A stretch of 64,000 nucleotides of DNA from an uncultured Hyphomicrobiales bacterium (lineage in GTDB: Bacteria > Pseudomonadota > Alphaproteobacteria > Rhizobiales > Beijerinckiaceae). Below the pieces are notes generated by a model. It had not been told where the DNA came from, did no database searches, and saw nothing but the letters and a program-made list of their open reading frames with translations. A program made the position numbers and the translations under genes. Shown piece after piece: positions 7,469 through 26,623 of this stretch (the stretch's first letter is position 1; each line of letters begins with the position of its first letter). The DNA is taken from positions 9,589-73,588 of the forward strand of contig CAIYZJ010000007.1 in the NCBI GenBank assembly GCA_903930675.1, given 5' to 3'.

Positions 7469-7866
7469 GTGCCCTGACGCGGTTGCGCTCCGATATCTGG
7501 GTCGATGCCTATCGCCGCAGGGTCGAGATTGCGGGCGGCTATGTGACAATCCGCCAGCGCGGTGCAACCGAGGCGGGCGCAATTTTTATCATTGTGAGCA
7601 ATCGCGATGGCGGCTCGCGGCTCTATGGGCCTGCTCCGCAATCGCTCTATGACGAAGGCGCGACATCGCGCCGCTTTATCGCGCTCAACAGCGAGGATTG
7701 GGACGCCTTGCAGGTGATGGCCATGCTCGAAAAACAAAAGCGCTTCGATCCCGATCTGTGGCTGGTGGATGTGGACGACCGCGAGGGTCGCCATTTTTTT
7801 CTAGATGACGAGCAAAGCCCGACCACGTCCGACACCCCGCCTGCATCAGGCCTTTGGAGATCATGA
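7465..7866 (+). CDS. DUF1491-like conserved hypothetical protein
   Basis: [39 protein letters not shown] is the typical N-terminus of this alphaproteobacterial family. ATGA overlap with the upstream gene. Confidence 0.7.
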
Positions 7867-8339
7867 TGGCTTTCTGGAAAGAAAAAACGCTGGACGAGAT
7901 GACCCCGCAGGAATGGGAAAGCCTGTGCGATGGGTGCGGCCGCTGTTGTCTGGTCAAACTCGAAGACGAGGATACCGCCGAAATCTATGCCACCGATGTC
8001 AGCTGCACCTTGTTCAACCCGCTGACCTGCCAATGCAGGAATTACAGCCAGCGCGCCAGTTTGGTGCATGATTGCGTGACCCTGACGCCCGAGGATGTGC
8101 GCAGCTTGCCGTGGTTACCGCCCAGTTGCGGCTATCGGCTGGTCAATGAAGGCAAGGATTTGCCCGCCTGGCATCCACTGGTGTCGGGTTCCCCGCGCAC
8201 CGTGCACGAGGCCGGCGTGTCGGTTCAAGGCCGTGTCTTTGCCTCCGAGGACGAGGTGGCACTCGATGATCTGCCCGCGCGCATCAAGGACTGGCCGCTG
8301 CAATGGCCCGCCAAACCGGCCACCAAAAAATCCCGTTGA
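7863..8339 (+). CDS. ycgN: YcgN family (UPF0260) cysteine-cluster protein
   Basis: [21 protein letters not shown]...[18 protein letters not shown] is the YcgN signature. ATGA overlap with the upstream gene, and GGAGA as RBS. Confidence 0.85.
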
Positions 8340-8403
8340 CGGACTGCGCAATCATGGGGAGCAGGGATGGCCATTAGCCATAAAATGCAAATTATTCCTA
8401 TAT

Positions 8404-8422
8404 AGGACTATAGTCCTTGACA
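8404..8422 (+). promoter_or_regulatory. 14-bp perfect palindrome AGGACTATAGTCCT abutting/overlapping a TTGACA -35-like hexamer
   Basis: 8404-8417 is self-complementary. TTGACA lies at 8417-8422, and TATTTT lies 18 nt downstream as a weak -10. Confidence 0.35.
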
Positions 8423-8543
8423 GGGACAATGGTTTTGCCTTATTTTTGAAATGTCCAAAAGCCTGCAGGCCGGTACGGCAGGGAAGGATGGGGCCTGTCT
8501 CTTGTCACCGGGGTTGCAGGGTCATTTCAAGAGGCCCGAAGCC

Positions 8544-9044
8544 ATGACATTGATCAGTGAACAGTTTTTCAAACCCTATTCCCCATGTCACCTTGCCACT
8601 GCAAAGCCGTCGCGTGTGACGCCCGGGGCTTGCGCGTGCCAGAGCCCTGCCACCCGTCCGTTTCTGGCCGAAGGGCCGGACGGTGTGCGCAGGCGTCTGG
8701 GGTGTTTGCTCGACAAGGATATGGCCCAGCTCGAAAGCGGCAAAAGCATCACAAAACTGCTCAAACGCGGCAAGCTGATTGCCCGTTGGGCCCGAGCTGT
8801 CAAAGACATCACAACGCCCGCCTGTCGGGAGCAGACAAAGCCCGTATTGGCAGATGCCGCGCAAGCAGTGCCCCTTCAGACAGCCCCAAGGCAAGCCACA
8901 AGACAAGCCCCAAGACAAGCCCCAAGACAAGCCCCTCCACCATGGGAGCGGACCACGTCCGTGCCCTTGGGTGTGGAAGCCTTCCGGACCGCTGTGGCAA
9001 AGGAGCTGTCGTTGATCCGCGATAAAAAGGAAAATATTCCTTGA
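8544..9044 (+). CDS. Hypothetical protein with a (PRQA)n repeat; start uncertain (8451, 8544 or 8731)
   Basis: Open frame 8451..9044 with host-like third-position GC. No recognisable domain. Lies immediately upstream of the GTA cluster. Confidence 0.35.
   Translation: MTLISEQFFKPYSPCHLATAKPSRVTPGACACQSPATRPFLAEGPDGVRRRLGCLLDKDMAQLESGKSITKLLKRGKLIARWARAVKDITTPACREQTKPVLADAAQAVPLQTAPRQATRQAPRQAPRQAPPPWERTTSVPLGVEAFRTAVAKELSLIRDKKENIP
8887..8934 (+). repeat. In-frame 12-bp tandem repeat (CAAGACAAGCCC), 4 copies
   Basis: Copies at 8887-8898 (2 mismatches), 8899-8910, 8911-8922 and 8923-8934. It encodes the QATRQAPRQAPRQAP tract. Confidence 0.9.
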
Positions 9045-9127
9045 CATTGTGACGCTGCTCCGGTAGAGTTCATTCATCATCCGGTGTTGCGCTTTGTTCC
9101 GGTGACCCCATCCGTTTTATTCAATTC

Positions 9128-9158
9128 CGGGCATGGCAGCATTCTGCCGTGCCCTTTT
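9128..9158 (+). terminator. Canonical intrinsic terminator in the leader immediately upstream of GTA g1
   Basis: 11-bp stem GGGCATGGCAG / CTGCCGTGCCC (one G-U pair), loop CATT, then TTTTT. The g1 ATG at 9172 is 13 nt past the T-run. Confidence 0.65.
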
Positions 9159-9171
9159 TATTGGACCTGTC

Positions 9172-9717
9172 ATGACCCGAACTCTGGTGCAAATGATCGA
9201 GGCTCCGGTTGATGCTCCGCTTGATCGGGAGGAGCTGTGCCGTCTCTATCGCGACAGCGACGAGACGGTGGCCAGTCTGATGGCGCGGTCGGGATTGCGG
9301 CCCCCCGAATTCTATCAGCTGCTGCGTGATCAGGGTCTTGCGCTGAGGCGTCCGCGCCGCAATGGCCGCGTGGCGCATGATCCCGAAATGCCGCGCAAGC
9401 CGGTGCGCAGGGAGGATCTGATTGCGCGGTTGTGGGAGGCAGCGTCCGGCCATATGGCGCAAATCGAAACGCGGCTGGCGCGGCTTGATCGCGGGCAGGC
9501 CAGTGACACCCCGCCCGCCGGAACCGAAAGCGAGCTTCGCTTGATGGGCCTGATTGTCAAAACCCTGCGTGATCTGGCAGCTCTTGATGCGGATGTCGCA
9601 GGGGCGCGGAAGAAGGAGATGGTTCAAGATGACCTTGCCGCCGAACTGGCCACCTGCCCCGAAAGCATGCGCGCGGAACTGGCTCGACGTCTTGCTGGAT
9701 TGCGCGAAGGCCGGTGA
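9172..9717 (+). CDS. GTA g1-like protein (putative small terminase/DNA-packaging specificity subunit)
   Basis: Position directly upstream of and overlapping TerL, about 180 aa, Arg-rich helical protein. Assignment is by synteny. Start could also be ATG 9133. Confidence 0.6.
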   Translation: MTRTLVQMIEAPVDAPLDREELCRLYRDSDETVASLMARSGLRPPEFYQLLRDQGLALRRPRRNGRVAHDPEMPRKPVRREDLIARLWEAASGHMAQIETRLARLDRGQASDTPPAGTESELRLMGLIVKTLRDLAALDADVAGARKKEMVQDDLAAELATCPESMRAELARRLAGLREGR

Positions 9718-11026
9718 GGAAAAACGGGTCATTGCCTCGCTGAGCGAACGCGAGATCGAATTCATGCTGGCCGACTGGATGAGCTGGGCGCGGCCCGACC
9801 AGTGCCCGCCTGGTGTGTCGCAAGCCGGATTGCCGTGGACGGTCTGGCTGGTGCTGGGCGGGCGCGGAGCAGGAAAAACGCGGACAGGCGCGGAATGGGT
9901 GCGCGGCATGGCGCTCGGCCTGCCGCCCTTTGCCGACCGTCCTGCCGGACGCATTGCCTTGGTGGGCGAAACCCAAGCCGATGTGCGCGATGTGATGATC
10001 GAAGGCGTGTCGGGCCTGTTGTCGGTGCACCGGCGCGACGAACGGCCGGTCTGGCAGGCGTCCCGCCGCAGGCTGGAATGGCCCAATGGCACAATCGCGC
10101 AGGCCTTTTCGGCGGAAGATCCCGACAGTCTGCGCGGGCCGCAATTCGATGCCGCGTGGCTCGATGAACTGGGCAAATGGCGGCGCGCGGAAGAGACCTT
10201 CGACATGTTGCAATTCGGGTTGCGGCTGGGTGCGCAACCGCGCCAGACAGTGACGACAACGCCGCGGCCTGTGCCTTTGCTGAAACGGCTGATGGAAGAC
10301 CCTGCCACCGCCATTTCGCGGGCGGCCACCCGTGCCAATGCGTTTCATCTGGCACCGTCCTTTCTCGATGCCGTGGTCAAGCGTTATGCGGGCACGCGGC
10401 TGGGCAGGCAGGAGCTGGAAGGCGAGTGGCTGGACGAGCGCAACGATGCTTTGTGGTCGCGCGCCGCAATAGAAACCTGCCGGATCGGGGCGGGCGCAAT
10501 TCCGCCTTTGCAAAGGCTGGTGGTGGCGATCGACCCGCCGGCCAGCTCGAGCCGCAACTCGGATTCCTGCGGGCTGATTGTCGCGGGGATTGATGCCAAC
10601 CGCACGGTCCATGTGCTCGAGGATGCGACGCTGTCGCAAGCGCGTCCGCATGTCTGGGCCGGAAAGGCCGCTGCACTCTATCGGGACTACGAGGCCGATG
10701 CCGTGGTGATCGAAACCAATCAGGGCGGCGAGATGGCCGAGGCCGTGTTGCGGGAAGCCGATCCCGGCTTATCCGTGCTGCCGGTTCGCGCCACCAGAGG
10801 CAAGATGCTGAGGGCCGAACCTGTCGCACTTCTTTACGAACAAGGACGAGTGAAACATGCAGGACTTTTCCGTGAGCTTGAAGATGAAATGTGTGATTTC
10901 GGCCCTAACCAGGATGGTTGGGGCCTGTCGAACGGCCATTCGCCGGACCGGCTCGATGCTCTGGTCTGGGCTGTTACAGCTCTGGCACTGGGCCCGAAAG
11001 CAGCTCCGCGTGTGAGGCGGTTGTAA
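9629..11026 (+). CDS. Phage/GTA terminase large subunit (RcGTA g2 homologue)
   Basis: WARPDQ...VWLVLGGRGAGKTRTGAEWV (Walker A) ...AWLDELGKW (Walker B-like) ...VVAIDPPASS...CGLIVAG (nuclease). AAGGAG lies 10 nt upstream of ATG 9629. 89-nt overlap with g1. Confidence 0.92.
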   Translation: MTLPPNWPPAPKACARNWLDVLLDCAKAGEEKRVIASLSEREIEFMLADWMSWARPDQCPPGVSQAGLPWTVWLVLGGRGAGKTRTGAEWVRGMALGLPPFADRPAGRIALVGETQADVRDVMIEGVSGLLSVHRRDERPVWQASRRRLEWPNGTIAQAFSAEDPDSLRGPQFDAAWLDELGKWRRAEETFDMLQFGLRLGAQPRQTVTTTPRPVPLLKRLMEDPATAISRAATRANAFHLAPSFLDAVVKRYAGTRLGRQELEGEWLDERNDALWSRAAIETCRIGAGAIPPLQRLVVAIDPPASSSRNSDSCGLIVAGIDANRTVHVLEDATLSQARPHVWAGKAAALYRDYEADAVVIETNQGGEMAEAVLREADPGLSVLPVRATRGKMLRAEPVALLYEQGRVKHAGLFRELEDEMCDFGPNQDGWGLSNGHSPDRLDALVWAVTALALGPKAAPRVRRL

Positions 11027-11077
11027 GGGCCGCACGCCTTACGGCCTCCCGTAGTCTGACCCCGCAAGGATAACATC

Positions 11078-12274
11078 ATGAGCACTCTTTTCGACCGCTG
11101 GCTGCGGCGTGCTTTCGCACGTCCCGATCACAGCAAAACCTCCGCCACCGGCCCGATGATGGCACTATACCAGACGGGACGTCCGGTCTGGACGCCGCGC
11201 GATTATGCGAGCCTTGCCAAAGAGGGATTCCAGACCAATCCGATTGTCTATCGCGCCGTCCGCATGATTGCGGAAGCCGCCGCTTCGGTGCCTCTGCTGC
11301 TGTATGACGGCCGCAAGGAACTGGCCGATCATCCGCTGCTGCGGCTGATGGTTACACCCAATCCGCGCGATAGCGGCACGGTGTTGCGCGAAGCCCTGTT
11401 CGGCTATCTGCTGGTGTCGGGCAATGCCTATCTGGAAGCAGTGTCCGACAGCAAGCAGGTGCGCGAGCTCTATGCCCTGCGGCCCGACCGGATGCGGGTG
11501 GTGCCCGGCGCGGATGGCTGGCCTGCCGGTTACGCGTATCAGGTCGGCGGGCAATCGGTGCAGTTCGACCAGCATGCCGCCCCCGTGCCGCAGATCCTGC
11601 ATCTGACCCTGTTCCATCCGCTCAACGACCATTACGGCCTGTCGCCGATGGAAGCAGCGGCCGCCTCGATCGATATCCACAATGCGGCGGGGGGATGGAA
11701 CAAGGCGTTGCTCGACAATGCCGCACGACCCTCGGGGGCATTGGTCTATGCCGGACCTCCGGGTGCGACATTGGGGGCCGAACAATTCGAACGGTTGAAA
11801 AGCGAGCTGGAAGCCTCGTTTCAGGGTTCGGCCAATGCGGGGCGGCCCTTGTTGCTGGAAGGCGGGCTGGACTGGAAGCCGCTGTCGCTGACCCCGAAGG
11901 ACATGGACTTCATGGAAGCCAAAGCGGCAGCAGCGCGCGACATCGCGCTGGCCTTCGGCGTGCCGCCGATGCTGCTCGGCCTGCCCGGTGACAACACCTA
12001 CGCCAATTATGCCGAAGCCAACCGTATCTTCTGGCGGCAGACGGTGATCCCGCTCGCCAGCCGGATTGCCGACAGCATCGCGCATTGGCTGTCGCCGGTT
12101 TACGGGGCTGTGAAACTCCAGCCCGATCTCGACCGGATCGATGCCCTGTCGCAGGAGCGCGAGGCATTGTGGTCGCGCTTGGGCAAGGCCGATTTTCTCA
12201 GTGTCGACGAAAAGCGCGAGGCGGTCGGCTACGGCCCGTTGCATGGCGCATCGACCGGCAAGAACGAGCCATGA
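11078..12274 (+). CDS. HK97-family portal protein (RcGTA g3 homologue)
   Basis: 398 aa. NPIVYRAVRMIAEAAASVPLLLY...GNAYLEAV...MEAKAAAARDIALAFGVPPMLLGLPGDNTYANYAEANRIFW is typical of HK97 portals. Confidence 0.93.
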   Translation: MSTLFDRWLRRAFARPDHSKTSATGPMMALYQTGRPVWTPRDYASLAKEGFQTNPIVYRAVRMIAEAAASVPLLLYDGRKELADHPLLRLMVTPNPRDSGTVLREALFGYLLVSGNAYLEAVSDSKQVRELYALRPDRMRVVPGADGWPAGYAYQVGGQSVQFDQHAAPVPQILHLTLFHPLNDHYGLSPMEAAAASIDIHNAAGGWNKALLDNAARPSGALVYAGPPGATLGAEQFERLKSELEASFQGSANAGRPLLLEGGLDWKPLSLTPKDMDFMEAKAAAARDIALAFGVPPMLLGLPGDNTYANYAEANRIFWRQTVIPLASRIADSIAHWLSPVYGAVKLQPDLDRIDALSQEREALWSRLGKADFLSVDEKREAVGYGPLHGASTGKNEP

Positions 12275-12453
12275 GTCCGGGATTGGACATGATCATCGCA
12301 CGCGGGGATCTGGCCGATCTGGCCCTGTTCCTTTGGGCTTCGGGAGCCTCGACCGCGCTGGCTCTGGTGTTGCGCCAGCTCGGCGAGGCCAATCGCCGCT
12401 TCGATGAATTCATCCGGCAATTACACCACTTCAACAGCCATTGGGATGGCTGA
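12271..12453 (+). CDS. Small GTA protein at the g3.5 position (60 aa, one hydrophobic segment)
   Basis: ATGA overlap with the portal stop. Position equivalent to RcGTA g3.5. Confidence 0.55.
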   Translation: MSPGLDMIIARGDLADLALFLWASGASTALALVLRQLGEANRRFDEFIRQLHHFNSHWDG

Positions 12454-12460
12454 TTTTTTT
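12435..12460 (+). terminator. Intrinsic terminator-like hairpin plus T7 run inside the GTA cluster
   Basis: Stem CAGCCAT / ATGGCTG, loop TGGG, then A followed by TTTTTTT (12454-12460). It overlaps the g3.5 stop codon. Confidence 0.5.
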
Positions 12461-12483
12461 GTCTGCGATGGGAGACTTTTGCC

Positions 12484-12681
12484 ATGATTGACCGTTTGTC
12501 CGTCCGATTGCCGCGCCTTCCCGACACGCCCGATCATCCCGCTGTGACGGGAGAGGCCGAAAGGGTGCAAAGCCGTTTCTGGCAGCATCTGGTGCGTCTG
12601 ACTGCTCCGGCCCGCCGTGTCCGGCAAATCCGCAAAGGCTTTGCGTCCACGCGCGGCCTGTCGCTGGAGGGCGTGTTGTGA
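12484..12681 (+). CDS. Hypothetical 65-aa ORF between g3.5 and the prohead protease
   Basis: ATG start. Its stop overlaps the GTG start of the protease (GTGA). Third-position GC is host-like. No homologue recognised. Confidence 0.3.
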   Translation: MIDRLSVRLPRLPDTPDHPAVTGEAERVQSRFWQHLVRLTAPARRVRQIRKGFASTRGLSLEGVL

Positions 12682-13154
12682 GTGAACGGCACAGCGTGGG
12701 CACGGGCATGCCCGTGGGTGAATTCGACGGCTATGCCAGCCTGTTCGGCGTGCCCGATCTCGGCCGCGATGTGGTGGCCAGCGGGGCTTTCGGCGACAGC
12801 CTGCAGAGCCGCGGCGGTGCTGCGGGAATCCGTCTGTTGTGGCAGCACGACCCCGCCCAGCCCCTCGGTGTCTGGACCGATATCCGGCAGGACCAGCGCG
12901 GGCTGTATGTGCGCGGGGCTTTGAACCTGTCGGTGGCGCGCGGGCGCGAATTGTTCGCGCTGATGCAACAGGGCGCGGTGGCGGGCCTGTCGATTGGCTA
13001 CCGCACCCGGAAGGCCCATGCGGATGCCCGCCAACGGCTGCGGATTTTGACCCGCATCGACTTTTGGGAAGTGTCGCTTGTGACCTTCCCTCTACTGCCC
13101 TCGGCCCGTGTGATGCGGGTTGCGGGATCCCCCTCGAACCGGAGATACCCATGA
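12678..13154 (+). CDS. HK97-family prohead protease (RcGTA g4 homologue)
   Basis: EFDGYASLFGVPDLGRDVV..GAF...LLWQHD...PLGVW...GLSIGY...EVSLVTFP is the prohead protease signature. GTG start at 12678 (alternative ATG at 12708). Confidence 0.9.
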   Translation: MSERHSVGTGMPVGEFDGYASLFGVPDLGRDVVASGAFGDSLQSRGGAAGIRLLWQHDPAQPLGVWTDIRQDQRGLYVRGALNLSVARGRELFALMQQGAVAGLSIGYRTRKAHADARQRLRILTRIDFWEVSLVTFPLLPSARVMRVAGSPSNRRYP

Positions 13155-14440
13155 CACGATCCAATGTATCAGTGCAGCCTTCCCAGCTGCCTCCTGTTTT
13201 GCTGGCCCCGGAAGTCAAGGCTTTCGACGCCACGCCTGCCGATGCCCTCGACAGCGTCAACCGCCATTTCGAAGCCTTCAAGGACGAGAACGACACGCGC
13301 CAGTCGCTGGCCGAGAAAGGCCGTTCGGTCGATGTGCTGGTGGAAGAAAAACTCGCGCGCATTACGCAGGCGCTCGACGAGGCGCAGAGCCGTTTGGACA
13401 GCGCCTTGCGCCAGCAACGCCGCCCGATGCTCGACGGTGCGGAGCATGACGCGACCAGTCCGCAGCACCGCCAATACAAAAGCGCATTTCATGATTATAT
13501 GCGCTCGGGTGAAACCGCAGGGCTGAAAGCGCTCGAACTCAAGGCCCTGTCGGCAGGCAGTCCGACCGATGGCGGCTATCTGGTGACGCCGCCGGTCGAG
13601 CGCGAAATTCTCAAGCGCATGTCGGTGGCCTCGCCGATCCGCTCGATTGCTTCCGTCCAGCAGATTTCGACCGCGACCTATCGCAAGGCCTATTCGACCA
13701 CCGGACCGGGCTCGGGTTGGATCGGCGAAACCGTAACGCGTCCGCAAACCGCTTCGCAGGTGATTGCCGATCTGAGCTTTCCGACCATGGAACTCTATGC
13801 GATGCCTGCGGCCACGCAGACCCTGCTGGACGATGCGGCGGTCAATGTCGAACAATGGATTGCCGAGGAAGTGCAGGTGGTGTTTGCCGAGCAAGAAGGT
13901 GCGGCCTTCGTCAATGGCGACGGCGTGACCAAGCCGCTCGGCTTTATGACACCGCCCAAAATTGCGCAGGCGAATTGGATTTGGGGGCGTCTCGGCTATG
14001 TCGTCACCGGCCTGTCGGCAGGCTTCAACACCACCAACGGATCGGACGCTCTGATTGATCTGATCTATGAAGTGAAAGCGGGCTATCGCCAGAGCGGCAG
14101 TTTTGTGATGAACCGCAAAACACAGGCCGCGATCCGCAAGCTCAAGGCGACAACCGGCGAATATTTGTGGCAGCCTCCGGCCGTGCTGGGCCAGCCCGCC
14201 ACCTTGATGAATTTCCCGCTCGTCGAGGTCGAGGACATGCCCGATATTGCCGCGGACAGTTTCTCGGTCGCCTTCGGCAATTTCGCCCGCGCCTATCTGA
14301 TCGTCGACCGGATCGGCATTCGGGTGCTGCGTGATCCCTATTCCAACAAGCCCTATGTGATGTTCTACACCACCAAGCGCGTGGGCGGCGGCGTGCAGGA
14401 TTTCGACGCGATCAAACTGTTGAAATTCGGCACGGCCTGA
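13151..14440 (+). CDS. HK97-family major capsid protein (RcGTA g5 homologue)
   Basis: N-terminal coiled-coil delta domain (FEAFKDENDTRQSLAEKGRSVDVLVEEKL...), then GGYLVTPP...ELYAMPAAT...FVNGDGVTKP...YVMFYTTKRVGGGV. ATGA overlap with the protease stop, and GGAGA as RBS. Confidence 0.93.
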   Translation: MTRSNVSVQPSQLPPVLLAPEVKAFDATPADALDSVNRHFEAFKDENDTRQSLAEKGRSVDVLVEEKLARITQALDEAQSRLDSALRQQRRPMLDGAEHDATSPQHRQYKSAFHDYMRSGETAGLKALELKALSAGSPTDGGYLVTPPVEREILKRMSVASPIRSIASVQQISTATYRKAYSTTGPGSGWIGETVTRPQTASQVIADLSFPTMELYAMPAATQTLLDDAAVNVEQWIAEEVQVVFAEQEGAAFVNGDGVTKPLGFMTPPKIAQANWIWGRLGYVVTGLSAGFNTTNGSDALIDLIYEVKAGYRQSGSFVMNRKTQAAIRKLKATTGEYLWQPPAVLGQPATLMNFPLVEVEDMPDIAADSFSVAFGNFARAYLIVDRIGIRVLRDPYSNKPYVMFYTTKRVGGGVQDFDAIKLLKFGTA

Positions 14441-14449
14441 TGACGGGCC

Positions 14450-15196
14450 TCACCGTTTCAGGGTCTTGTCGATCCATGCACGGTGGGGTGCCAGCATGAT
14501 GCCCTGAGTCATCGTCCCGCAACGGGCCTGACCCTTGCCCTCGCTCCAGACCGTGATGGCTTGCAACACGCCGTCACGGTCAAAAATGCCGCCGCCGGAA
14601 TCGCCCGTGCAGGCACCCTGATTGGCTTGGCCCGAGAGCCAGAGCAACAGCTTGCCCTGTCCGTAGGGAGTGACCACGGGCAGTGTGATCTGCCGCAAAC
14701 TGCCGATGCTGTCGGGCTGTGACTCGTTAGACAATCCAAACCCCTGAATGGTCAGCCGCGTCTCTTTGGCCTGGGGCGGCTGGTTGGCAGGCGGCAATTG
14801 GCTTTGCGTGAATGTGTCGGGCAATGCGCGTTTGGTCTGGATGACGGCAAGATCGATCGAGCGGCTGCGTGCGGCAATGGCATCGCTGTGATAATCGGGA
14901 TGGATGGTGATGCGTTTGGGCTCTTCCATCACAGGCTTTCCGTCTGTCCCGCGCCAATGCAGCCGGTAGGCCGAACCGCCTGTCACGCAATGGGCGGCTG
15001 TCAGCACGGCATCGGGAGCAATCACCACGCCGGAACAGACCGTGCCGCGATCCGACAAGACCATCAGCATCGGGCTATCTCCGGCCGGCACGGTTTGTCC
15101 GCCGACAATCGCCCCTGCCGGTGGTGTGACCAGTAGCGTTGCGCCCAAGGCGAGCAGGATAACGGGCTTGCGGGGCCGGACATGGTTGTGGCGCAT
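14450..15196 (-). CDS. Secreted trypsin-like serine protease (peptidase S1 family)
   Basis: Signal peptide ending ...PPAGA, followed directly by IVGG. Catalytic motifs TAAHC, DLAVIQT and GDSGGG are present. It lies on the opposite strand inside the GTA cluster. Confidence 0.88.
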   Translation of the reverse strand: MRHNHVRPRKPVILLALGATLLVTPPAGAIVGGQTVPAGDSPMLMVLSDRGTVCSGVVIAPDAVLTAAHCVTGGSAYRLHWRGTDGKPVMEEPKRITIHPDYHSDAIAARSRSIDLAVIQTKRALPDTFTQSQLPPANQPPQAKETRLTIQGFGLSNESQPDSIGSLRQITLPVVTPYGQGKLLLWLSGQANQGACTGDSGGGIFDRDGVLQAITVWSEGKGQARCGTMTQGIMLAPHRAWIDKTLKR

Positions 15197-15259
15197 CACG
15201 GGTGAAGACCTGTTTCGGGATTGATTTTTTTTCTGATCCTCTCATCGGAGATTTTGCAG

Positions 15260-15820
15260 ATGTTGTCCATGCAATTGATCACGGAACCGGCCAGCGAGCC
15301 GGTGACGCTGGACGAGGCCAAGCTTTTTTTGCGCATCGACACCGCGGATGACGATGCCTTGCTGGCCACTCTGATCACGGCCAGCCGCCGTCTGGTCGAA
15401 CAGACCACCGGCAAATGTCTGTTGCTACAGACATGGCGGTTCGGGGTCGACCGCTGGCCTGTTTCCGCATTGCTGCGTTTGCCCTTGTCCCCCCTGTTGT
15501 CATTGTCGGCAGTGACGGTGATGGACGGAACGGGCAATCGGGTGGCGCAAACCCTCGCCAATTTCCCGATCAATGCGACCAGCGTGCCGCCGACAATCCA
15601 GGCCAAAACCGTGCCGTCTTCCGGTGCTGTTTGCGAAGGTGGAATCCAGCTTGATGCCGTGTTCGGTTATGGCACCACCGCTGCCTCTGTGCCGCAGCCT
15701 TTGCGGCTGGCGGTACTGATGGTGGCTGCCCAATTTTACGAGACGCGCGGGCAGGGTGAAACCATCCTGCCCGGGGCCGTCCGGACCCTGATTGCCCCGT
15801 TTGTCAGGAGAACCTTATGA
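15260..15820 (+). CDS. Head-tail connector/adaptor protein (RcGTA g6 homologue)
   Basis: EPVTLDEAKLFLRIDTADDDALLATLITASRRLVEQTTGKCLL.QTW is the gp6-like head-tail connector N-terminus. GGAG lies 9 nt upstream of ATG 15260. Confidence 0.8.
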   Translation: MLSMQLITEPASEPVTLDEAKLFLRIDTADDDALLATLITASRRLVEQTTGKCLLLQTWRFGVDRWPVSALLRLPLSPLLSLSAVTVMDGTGNRVAQTLANFPINATSVPPTIQAKTVPSSGAVCEGGIQLDAVFGYGTTAASVPQPLRLAVLMVAAQFYETRGQGETILPGAVRTLIAPFVRRTL

Positions 15821-16182
15821 GCACGCCCTTGCATGAAGCCGTTGTGCTGGCCCGCGATCCCGCACTGGCCGGACGTCTGCGTGACCGGCTGAGCGTGGAA
15901 ATCCCGATTGACGCGCCCGACGGTTATGGCGGGATGACCCGCAGCTATCAGGTCAGCACCAAGGTCTGGGGGGTGATCGTGCCCTTCCGGATCTGGACAG
16001 GACGCGGACCCGATCAGGACGGGCAGGTGATCAGCCAGTTGGTGGTGATGCGCTGGCGCAATGATATCGAAACCGGCATGCGCCTGCGCAAAGGCTCGCG
16101 CATCTTGCGGATCTGCCAGCTGGCCGATGCCGACGGGCGGCGCATGCGCATGGTGTGTCTGTGCGAGGAGGATCACGCATGA
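15817..16182 (+). CDS. Head-tail joining/stopper protein (RcGTA g7 homologue)
   Basis: 121 aa, ATGA-coupled to g6. Size, position and the pattern DGYGG....W..V..VWG.I.P are typical of head closure proteins. Confidence 0.7.
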   Translation: MSTPLHEAVVLARDPALAGRLRDRLSVEIPIDAPDGYGGMTRSYQVSTKVWGVIVPFRIWTGRGPDQDGQVISQLVVMRWRNDIETGMRLRKGSRILRICQLADADGRRMRMVCLCEEDHA

Positions 16183-16631
16183 GTGCGACAGTTCCGGTGA
16201 TTACAGGTCCGGTGCTCGCCTTGCGGGCGGGCCTGCGCAATTTCTGGTTGGCTGATCCGGTGCTGCCGGGTCTGCTGGGCGGGGAGAAAATTTATGACAC
16301 GGCCCCGCGCTCGGTGGTGCCGCCTTATGTCACCTTCGGCAGTGTCAGCGCCAGACAATGGCTGGCCAGCAGCTTGCGCGGGCATGAGCAGGCGGTGTCG
16401 GTCTCGGTCTGGTCCCGCCAGATGTCCGACCGCGAAAGTCTGGAGATTGCCAGCCGTTTGAGCCTGATCAGTGACGGGGCCGTGCCGGCAATAGCGGGCT
16501 ATCAGCTCTGGCCCTTGCAGGTGGTGATGCTGGATTGTCCGCAAGGCAATCTGCCGGACAATCCGCAAGGTTTACGACAGGTTGTGGTGACCCTGCGCGC
16601 ATTCAGTGCACCATTGAGCAGCTCTCAGTAA
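16179..16631 (+). CDS. DUF3168-type tail terminator protein (RcGTA g8 homologue)
   Basis: 150 aa, ATGA-coupled to g7. KIYDTAPRSVVPPYVTFGSVSAR fits the DUF3168 pattern. Confidence 0.7.
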   Translation: MSATVPVITGPVLALRAGLRNFWLADPVLPGLLGGEKIYDTAPRSVVPPYVTFGSVSARQWLASSLRGHEQAVSVSVWSRQMSDRESLEIASRLSLISDGAVPAIAGYQLWPLQVVMLDCPQGNLPDNPQGLRQVVVTLRAFSAPLSSSQ

Positions 16632-16963
16632 AGCGGAGTTTGGGCGAGCGCGGCACTGATTTCCTCGCGCGTCTGGCTGTGCTGGTTTTTCAGCATGGCC
16701 AGAAATTCAGCGCTGGCCGGTTCCACCCCTGATTCGATCGCACCGATATTGTGGCTGAGCGAGGTGTAATAGGCGACCAGTCTGCGGAAGGCCTGATCGC
16801 GATGTTTGAGCCGCGCAAAATCGGCGGAATGACCTGAAAATTCTTCTTCGACAGAGCGCAACGCGGGGGCAATCGCAAAGCCTGTGTCCTCGGCTTGAAT
16901 CTGCGGTTCTGTCCGGTCTGGATCGGGGACGTTCACAACAACACTCCTGATGGGCATGTCCAT
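16625..16963 (-). CDS. Orphan hypothetical protein (about 112 aa) occupying the position of the missing g9-g11 genes
   Basis: Minus-strand ORF with host-like codon usage. Its stop overlaps the g8 stop by 7 nt. Only the part that does not overlap g12 is kept. Start could be 16957, 16963 or 16966. Confidence 0.45.
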   Translation of the reverse strand: MDMPIRSVVVNVPDPDRTEPQIQAEDTGFAIAPALRSVEEEFSGHSADFARLKHRDQAFRRLVAYYTSLSHNIGAIESGVEPASAEFLAMLKNQHSQTREEISAALAQTPLY

Positions 16964-17041
16964 CATAAGGCCAAACCAGCCTGCCCGACAAGGAGACCCG
17001 GTTCGGCTGCAGCTGGTTTCAAACATGGATGGCGAGGATTT

Positions 17042-17701
17042 ATGAGCACGGATTTTCATGACGTGGTTTTTCCGCTGGCCTTGTCGATGCAGGCGCGCGG
17101 CGGGCCGCAACGGCGCACGGACATCATCACCACGGGGGCAGGACGCGAGAACAGGGTCAGCCGCTGGGCCTGTTCGCGCTATCATTATGACATCGGCTCG
17201 GGGATCAAAACCCGCGCCGATCTGGCCCTGTTGTTGAATTTTTTCGAGGAGCGGCGCGGCGCGTTTTACGGTTTCCGGTTTCGCGATCCGCTCGATCGTT
17301 CCAGCGCGGCGCCGGATGCGGCAGTGACCCCGTTCGATCAGGTGATCGGGCAGGGGGACGGCACGCGCATGGCGTTTCAACTGGTCAAAACCTATGGCGC
17401 ATTATTCGCGCCCTATGCACGCCCGATTTTCAAACCGGTGGCTGGCACCATCCGGATTGCGGTGGCGGGAGTGGAGGTTCTGTTGGGGCAGGATGCCGAT
17501 TGCGATCCGCGCACCGGTCTGGTGCGGTTTCGCGCAGGGCACTGTCCGGCGGCGGGACAACAGGTCACGGCAGGTTTCCGCTTCGATGTGCCCGTGCGTT
17601 TTGCCGAGGACCGGCTGGAGGTTGCGCTCGATGCCTTCGGCAGCGGCGAGATCGCCAAAATCAGTCTGATCGAATTGCTTTGCCAACCGGAAAAGGCATA
17701 G
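17042..17701 (+). CDS. DUF2460-type distal tail protein (RcGTA g12 homologue)
   Basis: FHDVVFPLALSMQARGGPQRRTDIITTGAGRENRVSRW..SRYHYDIG...FFEERRGAFYGFRFRDPLD is the DUF2460 signature. GAGGA as RBS. Confidence 0.88.
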   Translation: MSTDFHDVVFPLALSMQARGGPQRRTDIITTGAGRENRVSRWACSRYHYDIGSGIKTRADLALLLNFFEERRGAFYGFRFRDPLDRSSAAPDAAVTPFDQVIGQGDGTRMAFQLVKTYGALFAPYARPIFKPVAGTIRIAVAGVEVLLGQDADCDPRTGLVRFRAGHCPAAGQQVTAGFRFDVPVRFAEDRLEVALDAFGSGEIAKISLIELLCQPEKA

Positions 17702-17705
17702 GGCC

Positions 17706-18584
17706 ATGCGCAATATTCCTCCGAGTTTTACAGGTGATGCCGCCAGTCTTGCCCTGTGCTGGCGGATCATGCGGCGCGATGGCGCGGTGCTGGGATTTAC
17801 CCAGCATGATGCCGATCTGGTATTCGGCGGGATCACGCATCAGGCACGCAGCGGGCTGGATGTGGAGTCTGCCCAAATACAGGCAGGGCTTGCCGGAAGC
17901 GAGACCGTGCTGCTGGGCGTGCTGATGTCCGAGAGTGTCACTCTGGCCGATATTCTGGCCGGACTTTATGACCATGCCACCATCGAAACATGGCTGGTGG
18001 ACTGGAGCGATCCGACCCTTTGCGTCCTGCTTGATTGCGGCTCGATCGGACGGATCGAGGCATCCGATCACGGGTTCAAGGTCGAGGTGCGATCCGTCAT
18101 CGACCAGTTGATGCAACCGCAGGGGCGGCTGTTTCAGGCCCATTGCGCGGCCGATCTGGGCGATGCGCATTGCGGGATAGATTTGAGCGGTTCCGCCTAT
18201 CGGCTCGAGGGCGTGGTGCGTGCCACAGATGGCCGCAGCATGCTGGCACTGGATGCGGGCGGCTTTGCCGCCGATGCCTTCAGTCGCGGCCTGTTGCAGG
18301 TGCTCGATGGCGCCAATGCGGGTATGCGCGCGGATATCAAGATGCATGATGTCGCCTCCGGTCAGGCGCGGATCAGTCTGTGGCAGGCCTTGCCAAACGT
18401 GCTTGCCGCGGGGGATCGGGTGGTGGCGATTGCGGGTTGCGACAAGCTGGCTGCCACCTGCCAGACCCGCTTCGGCAACATCATAAATTTTCGCGGATTT
18501 CCGCGCATGCCGGGCAATGATCTGTTGATCCGTCGGGTCAATGACGGCGAAGCGGGCATGGATGGCGGGAGCCTGTTTCAATGA
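17706..18584 (+). CDS. DUF2163 / BR0599-type baseplate hub protein (RcGTA g13 homologue)
   Basis: ASLALCWRIMRRDGAVLGFTQHD.DLVFGG..H.A.SG...C-terminal CDKLAATCQTRFGNIINFRGFPRMPG is typical. Confidence 0.88.
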   Translation: MRNIPPSFTGDAASLALCWRIMRRDGAVLGFTQHDADLVFGGITHQARSGLDVESAQIQAGLAGSETVLLGVLMSESVTLADILAGLYDHATIETWLVDWSDPTLCVLLDCGSIGRIEASDHGFKVEVRSVIDQLMQPQGRLFQAHCAADLGDAHCGIDLSGSAYRLEGVVRATDGRSMLALDAGGFAADAFSRGLLQVLDGANAGMRADIKMHDVASGQARISLWQALPNVLAAGDRVVAIAGCDKLAATCQTRFGNIINFRGFPRMPGNDLLIRRVNDGEAGMDGGSLFQ

Positions 18585-19033
18585 GCGCGCCAACCGACAT
18601 GCTGGCCGCCCGCGTGGTGGAGGAAGCACGCCGCTGGATCGGCACGCCCTATCTGCATCAGGCTTCGTTGTGCGGGGTGGGATGCGACTGCCTTGGTCTG
18701 GTGCGCGGCATCTGGCGTTCTGTCTACGGGGAAGAGCCCGAAGCCGTTCCCCATTACAGCGCCGATTGGGCCGAGGCCTCGGGCATCGAACATTTGCTCA
18801 TGGCCGGACACCGGCATTTTCTGCCGGTGGATACGGACGATATGGCCGCCGGTGATGTGGTGCTGTTTCGCTGGCGTGCGCATTGGCCAGCCAAACATCT
18901 GGGTGTGGTGTCGGGCGAAGGCAGCATGATCCATGCCCATGCGGGGGCAGTGGTGGCCGAGGTGCATTTCGGCATCTGGGCACGGCGCATCGCACAGGTC
19001 TTTCGCTTTCCGCCACCAGCTGAACGGGGTTGA
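18581..19033 (+). CDS. NlpC/P60 family cell-wall peptidase (RcGTA g14 homologue)
   Basis: WIGTPYLHQASLCGVGCDCLGLVRGIW...KHLGVV....MIHA carries the Cys and His catalytic residues. ATGA-coupled to g13. Confidence 0.9.
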   Translation: MSAPTDMLAARVVEEARRWIGTPYLHQASLCGVGCDCLGLVRGIWRSVYGEEPEAVPHYSADWAEASGIEHLLMAGHRHFLPVDTDDMAAGDVVLFRWRAHWPAKHLGVVSGEGSMIHAHAGAVVAEVHFGIWARRIAQVFRFPPPAERG

Positions 19034-22000
19034 TGATGGGCACTTTGATCTTGAATGCCGCGCAGGGCTCGGTGCGGGCGACGGCGGGCGGATTGGCCGG
19101 TCATGCGGTCGGCTCGCTCTTGGGCGGCGGGCCGATCGGCACGATGTTCGGGCGTATCGCCGGTCAGGCTTTGTCGGGCGCGCTGTCGGACCACCGGACC
19201 CGCTTGCATGATGGTCCGCGCCTGCATGACATGCCGGTGATGGGGGCGACAGAGGGCGCGCCCGTTCCGAAAGTCTATGGCCGCGCGCGTATCGGTGGCA
19301 CCTTGATCTGGTCGACCCGTTTTGCCGAGGTGATCAGCCAGACCGAAACCGAAACCGGCTCGGGCGGTTCCTCCGGCGGGCTCGGTTTCAAGGGCGGTGG
19401 CGGCGGCAGTTCCACCATCAACCGGACCTATTCCTATTACGGCAATTTCGCGGTGGCGGTGTGCGAAGGACCGGTGGCTTTCATCCGGCGCATCTGGGCC
19501 GACGGGCAGTTGATCGACCAGCAATCGGTCAGTTTGCGCATCTATCGCGGCGATGAAAACCAGCAGCCCGATCCGCTGATTGTGGCCAAGGAAGGGGCAG
19601 CCAATACGCCTGCTTTTCGCGGCACCTGTTATGTGGTGTTCGAACGGATGCCGCTGGCCGCATTCGGCAACCGCCTGCCGCAATTGAGCTTCGAGGTGGT
19701 GCGTCCGGTCAACGGCGTCGGGCAGAAAATCCGCAGCATCAACCTGATCCCCGGCTCGGGCGAATTTGCCTATGGCGTCACCGCCGTCTCGCGCGATTTC
19801 GGGCAGGGCAACAGCCAGTCCGAAAACCGCCATGATCTGTCGGGTGCATCCGACTGGATGGTCTCGCTCGATGCCTTGCAGGCCCTTTGCCCCAATCTGC
19901 GCCATGTACAATTGGTGGTGAGCTGGTTCGGTGATGATTTGCGCTGCGACAGCTGCACAGTGGCTCCGCGTATCGATCTGGCCGACAAGGCGACCATCGG
20001 CGCGCAATGGATGGTGGCGGGATTGACGCGGGCCGGCGCGCGTCCAGTCAGTCAGGTCAACGGTCGCGCGGCCTATGGCGGCACGCCGTCCGATCAATCG
20101 GTGATGGAAGCGATTGCCGATCTGCGGCGGCGCGGTCTGGCGGTTACGCTTTACCCGTTTTTGATGATGGATATTCCCGCTGCCAATACGCTGCCCGATC
20201 CGTGGAGCGGGGCCGCAAGCCAGCCCGCTTTCCCGTGGCGCGGACGCATCACGTGCACTCCGGCGATCGGGCAACCGGGTTCTCCCGACGGCACTCTGGC
20301 TGCTGCCACGGCGGTACAAAAATTTTTCGGCACGGCCAGTGCCTCCCAGTTCAGCTATGGCAACGGCGTGGTTTTTTCGGGCGGAGCGGAATGGTCGTGG
20401 CGGCGCATGGTGCTGCATTGTGCCACGCTCGCCAAAGCGGCCGGAGGTGTGAACGGCTTCATCATCGGATCGGAATTTGTCACGCTCAACCATATCCGCA
20501 GCGGCATCGGGACCTTTCCGGCTCCCAATGCCTTTGCCGCTTTGGCCAACGAGGTGCAATCGGTTTTGGGGCCTTCGACCGTGCTGACCTATGCGGCCGA
20601 TTGGACCGAATATGGCGGCTATAGCCCGAAGGCGGGCGAATTGCGTTTTCCGCTCGATGTGCTGTGGTCGCATCCGGCTATCGGGGCGGTGGGGATTGAT
20701 GCCTATTGGCCTGTCTCGGACTGGCGCGACGGCAACCCGCATCTCGATCTGGGCCAGACCGACTCTCTTTACGATCCGGCCTATCTGGCGGCGGGCATGG
20801 TGTCTGGCGAAAATTTCGATTGGTATTATGCCAGCCCCGCCGACCGCCAAGCGCAGTTGCGCACGCCGATCAGCGACGGCAGCATCAACAAGCCGTGGGT
20901 GTGGCGGGCCAAGGATGTCAAAAGCTGGTGGTCCAATCCGCATGTCGAGCGATTGAACGGGGTTGAATACACTTCGCCGACGCCGTGGCAGCCTTGTTCG
21001 AAACCGGTCTGGCTGACAGAGATCGGTTGTCCGGCCGTCGACAAGGGGTCCAATGCGCCCAATGTGTTCCCCGATCCGAAATCATCGGAATCCGCTTTGC
21101 CGCCGTTCTCGCATGGCCAGCGCGACGATGTGATGCTGCTGCGCTTTGTCGAGGCCGCACTGCTGGCTTTCGATCCCTTTCAGGGGGCCGATAGCAGCCG
21201 CAATCCGGTGTCTCCTGTCTATGGCGGGCGGATGATCGACCCCGACCGCATCAGCTTCTGGACATGGGATGCGCGGCCCTTTCCGGCCTTTCCCTTGATG
21301 GGCGATGTCTGGGCCGATCACAGCAACTGGCAAACCGGCCATTGGCTGACCGGCCGGCTCGAAAGCATCCCGCTCGACGGATTGATGAAAGCCATGCTGG
21401 CGGATGCCGGTCTGGCCGTGCCATTGGCGGGCCGTGTCGACGAGGTCATTGACGGCTATGTCGTCGACCATCCGATGAGCGTCGCCGAGATGATTGCACC
21501 CCTGTGCGATCTGCTCGATATCGAAGTGGCGGCCTCGGGTTCGGGGTTGCGTCTGCTGTCGCCCCAACGCAAGCCGGTGGTGCAACTGGCACTCGACGAC
21601 TTCGTGCCCTTGCCGGACGGGGGCTTGTTCGATCACCACCGCACCCGCGACACGGCTCTGCCGAGTGAATTGGCTTTGGGGTTTACCGAGGCCGAGGCCG
21701 ATTATCGCCGCGCCGTTGTTTCATCGCGGCGGCTGGCCAGCGGCACCGGGCGCAAGAGCTTGGCCGAATTTGCGCTGATGACCCGCCGCAGCGAGGCCCA
21801 GCGCATGGCCGACACTTGGCTGCACCGCGTCTGGACGGGGCGGGACGAAGTGAGCTTTGCTCTGGCACCGCGCTGGATCGGGCTCGAAGTCGGCGATGTG
21901 GTGACGCTGCCTTTGAGTAATCCGGCGCGCAGCTTTGTGATCACCACGATCCGAGAACAGGGGATGCGCTTGATCACGGCGCGCGCGGTGGCCGATCCTG

Positions 22001-24566: not shown

Positions 24567-25235
24567 ATGCGTTTGCTGGTTGTCGAAGACGACAGGGATT
24601 TGAACCGCCAGATTGTGGCAGCTCTGGAGCAGGCCGGTTATGTTGTCGACAAGGCCTTTGACGGCGAGGAAGGGCAGTTTCTGGGCGAGACCGAGCCCTA
24701 TGATGCGGTGATCCTCGATCTCGGCCTGCCGGTGCGCGATGGCTCCTCCGTGCTCAAAGCATGGCGCGAGGCGGGCAAGACCATGCCGGTGCTGATCCTG
24801 ACCGCACGCGACCGCTGGAGCGACAAGGTCAATGCCTTCGATACGGGCGCCGATGATTATGTCACCAAGCCCTTCCATATCGAAGAAATTCTGGCCCGCG
24901 TCCGTGCTTTGCTGAGGCGGGCGACGGGCCATGCCAAAAGCGAGCTGGTGTGCGGTCCGGTAATCCTCGACACCAAAAACGGCCGCGTGACGGTGGATGG
25001 AAATCCCGTACGGCTGACCTCGCACGAATACCGGCTGATCGCCTATTTGATGCATCATCAGGGCCGGATCATTTCGCGCAGCGAAATCATCGAGCATCTC
25101 TATGATCAGGATTTCGACCGCGACTCCAACACCATCGAGGTGTTTGTCGGACGCATCCGGAAAAAGCTCGGGATAGACATTATCGAAACCGTCCGAGGTC
25201 TGGGCTACCGGCTCGAAGTGCCGCAGGCGGGTTGA
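24567..25235 (+). CDS. OmpR/PhoB-family response regulator
   Basis: LLVVEDD...DAVILDLGLP..DG...LILTARD....KV.AFD.GADDYV.KPF, plus a winged-helix C-terminus (LTSHEYRLIAYL...VFVGRIRKKLG...ETVRGLGYRL). Confidence 0.93.
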   Translation: MRLLVVEDDRDLNRQIVAALEQAGYVVDKAFDGEEGQFLGETEPYDAVILDLGLPVRDGSSVLKAWREAGKTMPVLILTARDRWSDKVNAFDTGADDYVTKPFHIEEILARVRALLRRATGHAKSELVCGPVILDTKNGRVTVDGNPVRLTSHEYRLIAYLMHHQGRIISRSEIIEHLYDQDFDRDSNTIEVFVGRIRKKLGIDIIETVRGLGYRLEVPQAG

Positions 25236-25237
25236 GC

Positions 25238-26623
25238 ATGATGCGGCTGGTCGCCAGAGCCTCTCTCTCGACACGGATGATTGTCGGCGCGTTGCTGAGC
25301 AGTCTGACCGTGCTGGTGGCGGCAGGCGTGATCCTGAGCCATATCCACAGGCAGGCCACCGAACAGGCGTTTGACGAACGCCTGAACGTCTATTTGCAGG
25401 CACTGACCGGCGGGCTGGCCTCGCCGACCGAAAGCGACCATTCCGATCCGGCCGATCTGGGCGACCCCAAATTCGATTTGCCGATGTCGGGGTGGTATTG
25501 GCAGATCGACAGCGGCGGCGACGGCAAGGGACAAACCATCGCTTCGCCCTCCTTGTTCGGATCGCGCCTGCCGCGAATGGTGACGCCGACCCTGCGCACC
25601 AGCAGTTCCGATATTCTGCAAGGCTATGTCAAAGGCCCCGACGACCGCAATCTGCGGGTGATGGAGCGCATGGTGCTGACCCCCGACGGGGTCTGGCACA
25701 GGTTGCGCGTGGCAGGCGATGCCGATGATATCGAACGGGCCGTACAGGCCTTCCGGTTTCCGTTGCTGGTGACATTCGGACTGCTGGGCGCGACCATCGT
25801 TTTTCTCACGGCCTTGCAGGTCTGGTTGGGCATGCGCCCCTTGGGGCTGTTGTCGACCGCGCTGTCGGACATCCGCACCGGACAGGCTGACAGGATCGAC
25901 GGGGATTATCCGCCCGATCTCGCGCCACTGGCACGCGAACTGAATTTGCTGATCGACTCCAACCGCGAGATCATGGAGCGGGCCCGCACGCAGGTGGGCA
26001 ATCTTGCCCATGCCCTGAAAACCCCGTTGAGTGTTATCGCCAACGAGGCCGCTGCCATAGACGGCGAGGTCGGCGAGAAAATCCGCGAGCAGTCAGCGGT
26101 GATCGGGACCCAGATGAACTGGTATCTGGAGCGCGCCAGAACGGCAGCGGCCAGCGTCGCGCTGGGTAGAGCCACCGAGCTTGCGCCGGTGATCGGCGGC
26201 TTGGCGCGGGTGTTTGCCAAATTGTGGCAAAGCCGCGCTGTCACGCTGGTCTATGATGTTCCGTCCGGCCTGTGCTTTCGCGGCGAGAAGCAGGATCTTG
26301 AGGAGATGCTGGGCAATCTGATCGACAATGCGGGCAAATGGGCCGCCTCGCAGGTATCCGTGACAGCCCGCCTCAACGAGGGACCGGATCTGTTTGTCGA
26401 TGTCATGATCGACGATGACGGTCCCGGTTTGGCGAAGGATTTGCGGGTCGAGGCCATGCGGCGCGGCCGCAGGCTTGATGAAACCCGCCCCGGCACGGGC
26501 CTCGGCTTGGCGATTGTGGCCGATCTGGCTAAACTCTATGGTGGACAGTTGATGCTCGAGGACAGTTCTCTGGGAGGATTGCGTGCCCGCTTGCGCTTGC
26601 CGGCCCTGCAATCGCCTTCATGA
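25238..26623 (+). CDS. Sensor histidine kinase (two TM segments, HAMP, HisKA, HATPase_c)
   Basis: H-box NLAHALKTPLS, N-box LGNLIDNAGKW, G-boxes DDDGPGL and GTGLGLAIV. Abuts the regulator gene. Confidence 0.9.
   Translation: MMRLVARASLSTRMIVGALLSSLTVLVAAGVILSHIHRQATEQAFDERLNVYLQALTGGLASPTESDHSDPADLGDPKFDLPMSGWYWQIDSGGDGKGQTIASPSLFGSRLPRMVTPTLRTSSSDILQGYVKGPDDRNLRVMERMVLTPDGVWHRLRVAGDADDIERAVQAFRFPLLVTFGLLGATIVFLTALQVWLGMRPLGLLSTALSDIRTGQADRIDGDYPPDLAPLARELNLLIDSNREIMERARTQVGNLAHALKTPLSVIANEAAAIDGEVGEKIREQSAVIGTQMNWYLERARTAAASVALGRATELAPVIGGLARVFAKLWQSRAVTLVYDVPSGLCFRGEKQDLEEMLGNLIDNAGKWAASQVSVTARLNEGPDLFVDVMIDDDGPGLAKDLRVEAMRRGRRLDETRPGTGLGLAIVADLAKLYGGQLMLEDSSLGGLRARLRLPALQSPS

Follow-up and report, generated by a model that had tools for sequence, protein, structure and literature searches.

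An S1A serine protease gene antisense between the capsid and connector genes of gene transfer agent clusters in a family of Hyphomicrobiales

Phage morons are independent host-benefit genes within prophage late operons. Secreted microbial serine proteases of peptidase subfamily S1A are a well known enzyme family, with such members as the trypsins of Fusarium oxysporum (PDB 1try/1fn8) and Saccharopolyspora erythraea (4m7g), and VesC of Vibrio cholerae (6bqm). Clusters for gene transfer agents (GTAs) of the type of Rhodobacter capsulatus (RcGTA) include the RcGTA-like 'large clusters' of Shakya et al. 2017 (PMC5721377), and the only published link that we found between a trypsin-like peptidase and a GTA is LypABC of Caulobacter, a CARD-NLR-like system that triggers lysis for GTA release; its components LypA and LypC are cytoplasmic multi-domain proteins (CARD-like + peptidase + ATPase, and peptidase + endonuclease, respectively; PMC13236601). 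Here we report on a gene of subfamily S1A, hereafter S1, which lies antisense between genes g5 and g6 of an RcGTA-like cluster in a stretch of 64,000 nucleotides (nt) from an uncultured Hyphomicrobiales bacterium (contig CAIYZJ010000007.1, positions 9,589 to 73,588, forward strand; below, the window), and which is not comparable with LypABC. In the freely searchable literature, including what is accessible in this way of the main comparative GTA papers, no description of an S1/trypsin gene in GTA clusters was found, and its antisense placement in the g5|g6 slot appears to be undescribed.

We interpret the S1 gene as a long-standing passenger in the g5|g6 slot, one that benefits the cell and does not form part of the GTA, a reading to which we assign a probability of about 0.7. 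It draws on direct observations of gene integrity, fold, distribution, co-inheritance, purifying selection and separability in both directions, which are given in turn. The three genes at the center of the analysis are the following.

14450..15196, minus strand: S1, S1A (chymotrypsin-fold) serine protease gene, g6-proximal 'copy A' (open reading frame and translation, PF00089)
13151..14440, plus strand: GTA g5, HK97-type major capsid protein, left neighbour (PF05065, 6.5e-86; TIGR01554, 1.9e-114)
15260..15820, plus strand: GTA g6, head-tail connector (gp6/gp8-type), right neighbour (TIGR02215, 5.4e-47; PF05135)

The distribution of the arrangement was studied in two samples, whose genomes and loci are cited by G and L numbers where they have to be told apart. 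The first was drawn from relatives (30 loci, about 30 genera); at 26 of the 30 loci an antisense S1 separates g5 from g6. For the second, 121 genomes (53 genera) were taken from the source family within Hyphomicrobiales, to which Methylobacterium and Microvirga also belong: 46 of the 53 genera have S1 and 37 a GTA-type capsid, and S1 adjoins g5 in 68 genomes of 33 genera, that is, in 68/68 cases with both genes on one contig. S1 is antisense to the GTA in every cluster inspected, often as a tandem pair. As an example, Microvirga flavescens and Methylobacterium organophilum (NCBI family Methylobacteriaceae), which pair with source-family genomes in the trees, have two tandem opposite-strand Trypsin genes between Phage_capsid and Phage_connect_1 in a complete GTA cluster. 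A search of genome contigs with the single protein gave only one close relative, with a Hyphomicrobiales metagenome-assembled genome as the nearest named one, besides distant Lentzea proteases. Contig breaks in draft genomes caused 'S1-only' or 'GTA-only' calls in G002, G034, G224, G264 and G295; an apparent absence of both GTA and S1 from the sister species G002 and G003 was likewise dropped, as the G002 contig ends inside gene g7 and G003 is 85% complete.

Outside the family the arrangement is rare. In 20 further families of the class that have GTA-type capsids, no S1 gene was found closer than 1.5 kb to g5, and in 10 of these g6 directly follows g5; within the same order S1 occupies the junction in only 1 of 20 other families with GTA capsids (G058). 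In total, 39 other alphaproteobacterial families with GTA-type capsids are without S1 and one other has it. The view of the preliminary description of this DNA that canonical RcGTA clusters have no such gene thus holds for the 39 other families sampled. S1 is not a core gene of RcGTA-like clusters: it is absent from that position in 39 of 40 other families sampled, lies on the opposite strand, has a separable fate and is without phage homologs. In the exceptional G058 (L085, 8840-10245) the g5|g6 junction holds an antisense pair of S1 genes, which join the copy A clade at its base, each on a long branch.

The fates of protease and GTA can be separated in both directions. S1 is dispensable for the structural module that surrounds it: complete g2-g15 clusters without S1, with a g5 to g6 gap of 72-98 nt, occur in 6 genomes of 2 genera, three species each, labelled g7 and g9 (labels of genera, not of the GTA genes with the same numbers). 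In a quick GTA tree G011 (genus g7) and G013 (genus g9) are sisters (support 100) nested in an S1-bearing clade (support 100), and we therefore read their condition as one secondary excision of S1. The otherwise complete cluster of G013 (L084, 863-5048) has an insertion of about 1.8 kb between g2 and g3 and, downstream of g3, an additional piece of that gene (residues 293-364).

Conversely, at least 8 genera have an intact S1 without the GTA, at the same chromosomal address. The landmarks of that address in the window are as follows.

7854..8339, plus strand: CxxCxxCC-domain (YcgN-like) gene, conserved left landmark (PF03692)
24567..26605, plus strand: OmpR-type response regulator and histidine kinase, conserved right landmark, with ccm genes next (Pfam)

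The YcgN-like gene is upstream of the GTA cluster in 12 mapped clusters from 10 genera; downstream of the locus are a PepSY-like gene, the response regulator, the histidine kinase and ccmI/E/F (window 24222-30593). G014, G222, G226, G229, G256 and G267 have the order (YcgN-like) - S1 (or S1B-S1A) - regulator - kinase - ccm, which is collinear with the window minus every GTA gene, while G019 and G243 have YcgN|S1 and G036 has S1 - PepSY - regulator. The GTA-less S1 copies keep the catalytic triad and are nested among GTA-linked ones on the S1 tree, which for the A copies requires 7 or more changes of GTA state. Partial losses can also be recognized. In G271, one species of genus g2 (again a genus label), g1 to most of g5 are deleted and a 129-nt (43-codon) 3' stub of g5, 93% identical to its congener, abuts the S1 stop (L121, 9000-9128), with g6-g15 and the fibre gene kept; G031 keeps g6 and S1 beside non-GTA DNA. 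Since there are GTAs without S1 and S1 genes without a GTA, the two are separable both ways, which argues that the protease is kept for its own sake. For the evolution of such elements this means that a domesticated virus can disappear while a passenger gene that it once housed lives on.

The address itself (YcgN-like gene upstream; PepSY-like gene, regulator, kinase and ccm downstream) outlasts GTA loss (L079, L110, L117-L120, L124, L125), and former GTA loci are therefore recognisable; a lone S1 between a YcgN-like gene and a regulator-kinase-ccm block is the mark of one. At the GTA-less locus of G286 (L122, 9496-10098), S1 shares its strand with the regulator and kinase, inverted with respect to the ancestral orientation. 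G019 has a g12-g15 module (L112, C13, 12930-19989) on another contig than its YcgN|S1 locus, with no head genes detected in the genome; we read this module as a relocated, headless tail/baseplate remnant. The GTA_TIM matches in G014 and G007 were considered as RcGTA-type clusters and rejected: they belong to a distant module of 25-33% identity with a different gene order (g15-like, g12, g13, g14; L113 of G014, 2510-9852; L115 of G007, 11393-15451).

These distributions bear directly on a different explanation, in which S1 would be a lineage-specific accessory factor of the GTA, released at lysis or secreted earlier, that aids particle release, trims the fibre/host-attachment protein or remodels the recipient envelope. 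Such a factor would account for the same slot and orientation in 33 genera, for the co-inheritance of S1 with the cluster and for a purifying selection similar to that of the GTA genes, and it has a precedent in the trypsin-like peptidases LypA and LypC of Caulobacter, which act in GTA lysis (PMC13236601). It is harder to reconcile with the complete clusters without S1 in genera g7 and g9, with the intact S1 of at least 8 genera that have lost all GTA genes, with the predicted Sec export, which would separate S1 from cytoplasmic particle assembly, and with the lack of phage homologs. As for the precedent, what S1 has in common with LypA and LypC is a trypsin-superfamily serine peptidase with a GTA link; they are cytoplasmic, multi-domain and encoded outside the cluster, whereas S1 is a single Trypsin domain of 248 residues that is predicted to be exported and persists without any GTA. 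On balance we consider an accessory role unlikely; a role in particle maturation or release, one of those first proposed for this gene, is disfavoured by the same two sets of genera.

The S1 family has a history that can be compared with that of the GTA. In a maximum-likelihood tree of S1 the g6-proximal copies (copy A) form a clade (support 97/99, later 96/83) against a basal grade of g5-proximal copies (copy B), from which it follows that the tandem pair is old and that the source genus lost B. The S1 tree and a tree of g2+g3+g5 (a quick search) have in common the clades {G000, G001, G005, G008}, {G010, G033, G022}, {G035, Methylobacterium}, {G032, Microvirga} and {G006, G012, G023}, where G000 is the genome of the window and G001 its sister species. 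The agreement of the two trees on the main clades points to vertical co-inheritance. Between G000 and G001, the ratio of nonsynonymous to synonymous substitution rates (dN/dS) is 0.14 for S1, at dS 0.66, within the range of 0.05-0.21 obtained for the GTA genes; comparisons of copy A with copy B and mismatched high-scoring segment pairs were left out as artefacts. These ratios indicate that S1 is under purifying selection. The base composition of S1 is that of its neighbours (GC 0.627; GC at third codon positions 0.73).

It is against these results that S1 as a neutral or decaying insertion, or as a recent, strain-specific, horizontally acquired moron, has to be judged. As this explanation would have it, the g5|g6 junction is a hot spot for insertions, with extra inserts of 1.2-2.7 kb in seven genomes. 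The dN/dS of S1, the triad and four cysteines kept in every full-length homolog checked, the presence of S1 in 46/53 genera, the congruence of the S1 and GTA trees and the base composition shared with the neighbours nevertheless refute it, and we give it practically no weight. Nor is the insertion recent or confined to a strain: the gene is family-wide and vertically inherited. The preliminary description had proposed to recognize a neutral insertion by the absence of the protease from otherwise identical clusters, combined with uncorrelated expression; S1 is indeed absent from complete clusters in genera g7 and g9, but with a dN/dS of 0.14 and a conserved triad it is not neutral. Of the three options offered there (a moron-like cargo gene, a factor for the particle or the recipient envelope, and an unrelated insertion tolerated by a re-wired cluster), the last comes closest, although the insertion is not recent and re-wiring is unproven.

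The comparison with phage morons can be made on the same grounds. Like a moron, S1 lies between structural genes, is dispensable for the module, is conserved for its own sake and presumably has its own transcription. As to a promoter and terminator belonging to S1 itself, the consensus scans recognized neither, and the spacers are too short for them. Unlike a moron, S1 is antisense instead of co-oriented, has a typical base composition (no sign of recent acquisition), has been inherited vertically for the age of a bacterial family within a non-mobile element, and outlives that element.

The protein itself was studied by profile searches and structure prediction. Counted from the ATG, the open reading frame has 248 amino acids (aa), with an in-frame GTG at 15199, one codon 5' of that ATG. 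It matches Pfam Trypsin PF00089 with E=8.7e-27 and 94.8 bits, against a cut-off of 20.6 bits, over profile positions 1-209 of 220, and Trypsin_2 more weakly. The triad H69/D115/S200 occurs in order within TAAHC, IDLAV and GDSGGG, and the cysteines equivalent to chymotrypsin C42-C58 and C191-C220 are all there, forming two predicted disulfide pairs. The corresponding positions in the window are these.

15110..15196, minus strand: coding part of the predicted signal peptide, residues 1-29, predicted cleavage AGA|IVGG
14990..14992, minus strand: codon of catalytic His69 (TAAHC)
14852..14854, minus strand: codon of catalytic Asp115 (IDLAV)
14597..14599, minus strand: codon of catalytic Ser200 (GDSGGG), position taken directly from the sequence

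The N-terminus, MRHNHVRPRKPVILLALGATLLVTPPAGA|IVGG, consists of a basic n-region, a hydrophobic core (Kyte-Doolittle values up to 2.6) and an AxA-like c-region; the signal peptide was judged from this composition and from the homologs. In a search of PDB sequences the IVGG of S1 lines up with the first residue of mature trypsins. An AlphaFold2 model, for which 46 homologs were used, has a predicted local distance difference test score (pLDDT) of 90.5 and a predicted template modelling score of 0.85, with residues 1-29 (pLDDT <60) as the sole poorly defined part. Foldseek comparison of the model with the PDB gave 1347 matches at E<=0.001, with the chymotrypsin fold throughout; the top matches are the Fusarium and Saccharopolyspora trypsins, chymotrypsin, elastase and granzymes (template modelling scores 0.70-0.81). 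By sequence, triad, modelled double beta-barrel fold, IVGG N-terminus and predicted disulfides, S1 is thus a member of peptidase family S1, subfamily S1A. The preliminary description had been right about the coordinates, strand, length, signal peptide, IVGG motif and triad, all of which are borne out by the open reading frame, its translation and the sequence.

With the secreted microbial S1A proteases named at the outset, S1 has in common the fold, the triad, both cysteine pairs, the IVGG-type mature N-terminus and a single catalytic domain behind a secretion signal (predicted for S1). It is unlike them in an identity of only 22-24% over the aligned structures, in having no predicted propeptide, in the location of its gene within a GTA cluster, and in residue 189 of the specificity pocket, which is Gly (motif GAC[TQ]GDSGG) and not Asp, so that S1 should be without trypsin specificity. 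All full-length family homologs checked, and the 46 database homologs as well, have the triad, and both cysteine pairs occur in every full-length homolog extracted; nearly all homologs whose start codon could be placed begin with a signal-peptide-like stretch and continue with an IVGG-like motif. Two disulfide pairs would suit an enzyme located in the periplasm or outside the cell. S1 is the only S1A-type gene of the source genome, in which the other two PF00089 matches fall within open frames of the length usual for DegP/HtrA-type proteases (481 and 524 aa). A class-wide search with PF00089 was uninformative, as it also matches frames of about 450-570 aa (DegP/HtrA-sized) in nearly every genome. 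There was no PHROG family match to S1 at E<=0.01 and no tblastn match in 50,697 phage records; as far as such comparisons can tell, S1 is not phage-derived.

The mechanism that we favour starts from these features. The product of S1 would be a Sec-exported, single-domain S1A serine endopeptidase in which the signal-peptidase cut at AGA|IVGG exposes the activating N-terminus of the Ile16 type directly, so that the enzyme would be self-activated upon export and no propeptide would be required. Its role would lie in proteolysis at the cell envelope or outside the cell. A tandem pair A + B would have entered the g5|g6 junction of an RcGTA-like cluster in the ancestor of the family and then been inherited vertically with the cluster, antisense, with the source genus keeping copy A only. 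In studied GTAs the GTA transcript is expressed in only a small subpopulation of cells. The antisense placement would keep S1 outside this transcript, so that all cells could express S1 independently, and the long GTA transcript would read through S1.

Whether such read-through is plausible depends on the two junctions, which have the following coordinates in the window.

14441..14449, unstranded: spacer between the convergent stops of g5 and S1, 9 nt, without terminator (sequence and terminator scan)
15197..15259, unstranded: spacer between the divergent starts of S1 and g6, 63 nt, including the g6 ribosome-binding block GGAG

The stop of g5 is TGA at 14438-14440 and that of S1 (tca on the forward strand) is at 14450-14452; the ATG of S1 is at 15194-15196 and that of g6 at 15260. 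Both spacer lengths had been given correctly before, as had the absence of a terminator from the convergent junction, where our scan of 13800-15900 found no terminator-like site. The only match of that scan was a weak 5-bp hairpin within g5, fewer than in shuffled sequences. A consensus scan of the 63-nt divergent spacer recognized no sigma-70-like site, and the promoter and terminator scans overall gave nothing above chance. No CtrA box (TTAA-N7-TTAA) was found near S1, with fewer matches than in shuffles, and an Rfam search of 8000-25000 gave no match. The 63-nt spacer is only 58% identical to that of the sister species, the block CTCATCGGAGATTTTGCAGATG excepted.

The tightness of the junctions is not a peculiarity of the window. 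Of 27 related clusters, 17 have a stop-to-stop gap of 0-36 nt between g5 and S1, and in several genera the start-to-start gap between S1 and g6 is about 0-30 nt. Gaps so short leave no room for a terminator or two promoters, which makes read-through of the GTA transcript across the antisense S1 the simpler reading; for the same reason the earlier claim that the insertion breaks the operon and re-wires the cluster is unproven. We infer that the GTA transcript runs through S1 and that S1 is transcribed independently of the GTA, in which case the S1 promoter would lie inside g6 and its transcript would end inside g5. A non-GTA gene antisense in the middle of an operon across at least 33 genera is a natural experiment for GTA biology, in that the operon either restarts internally or tolerates transcripts that run across a gene facing the other way, and the arrangement offers a useful handle on the architecture of the GTA operon.

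The same junctions allow for the possibility that transcription of S1 is itself a brake: converging into g5 and occupying the start region of g6, it would damp a leaky and lethal GTA operon in non-producers, with the protein having a separate cellular job. With gaps this tight and no terminator between them, S1 transcripts must end in g5 and the S1 promoter must lie in or beside g6, as the brake would need; moreover, the head-gene deletion in G271 stopped 129 nt inside g5 and left the stub beside S1. GTA clusters that do without S1 exist, however (genera g7 and g9), and G271 is alone in its g5 stub: no g5 or g6 stubs flank S1 in the fully GTA-less genomes. In a sliding comparison of G000 and G001 the nucleotide identity is raised at the 3' end of g5 (0.92-0.93), which may equally be explained by constraint on the capsid protein. 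We therefore hold it very unlikely that this is what S1 transcription is for. Some regulatory side-effect of S1 transcription on the GTA operon is possible, at a low probability. Quite doubtful, too, is a two-way interlock in which constitutive S1 transcription would damp leaky GTA transcription at the head-tail junction, and GTA induction in producer cells would silence an exported protease that might otherwise damage the released particles; if true, it would couple the transcription of a host gene with that of a domesticated virus in both directions, and would have done so for as long as the bacterial family has existed.

Three points weigh against the interpretation of S1 as a cell-serving passenger. 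The consensus scans detected neither a promoter nor a terminator for S1; several lineages (G007/G232, G027/G251 and others) have lost both S1 and the GTA, so that S1 is not indispensable; and a functional link with the cluster, which only some backgrounds can do without, could also account for the retention of the slot across 33 genera. At the G027 locus, YcgN is followed by 3.9 kb and then by regulator-kinase-ccm.

The cluster around S1 is otherwise that of an RcGTA-like element. The true start of g5 is the ATG at 13151, with GGAG at 13141, and the window has a full RcGTA-like set: TerL, portal, S78 protease, capsid, connector, head completion and tail completion, continued by DUF2460, BR0599-like, NlpC/P60, the GTA_TIM megaprotein and a DUF2793 fibre. 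The neighbour families and their order match those of RcGTA and of the RcGTA-like large clusters (PMC5721377), and the cluster is unlike those of the 39 other families in having S1 at g5|g6; in addition, g9-g11 (tail tube, chaperone and tape-measure) are absent from the cluster in the source genus. For annotation, GTA and prophage callers should neither count S1 as a particle protein nor split the cluster there.

Some minor observations concern the same clusters. The gap from g8 to g12 measures 263 nt in the window (16631-16895) and in the sister G001, about 530 nt in G005 and 1.4-2.8 kb in other genera. The extra 1.2-2.7 kb of DNA at the g5|g6 junction lies between S1 and g5 in G010, G033, G035, G245, G255, G259 and G292; the inserts have coordinates 6933-8126 in L086 (G010), 6325-7563 in L087 (G033) and 7010-8821 in L088 (G035), that of G033 including small opposite-strand open reading frames and that of G035 a frame of 367 aa. 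Finally, the gene that follows g15 (window 23011-24171) encodes a DUF2793 protein with a C-terminal Peptidase_S74 (endosialidase chaperone) domain.

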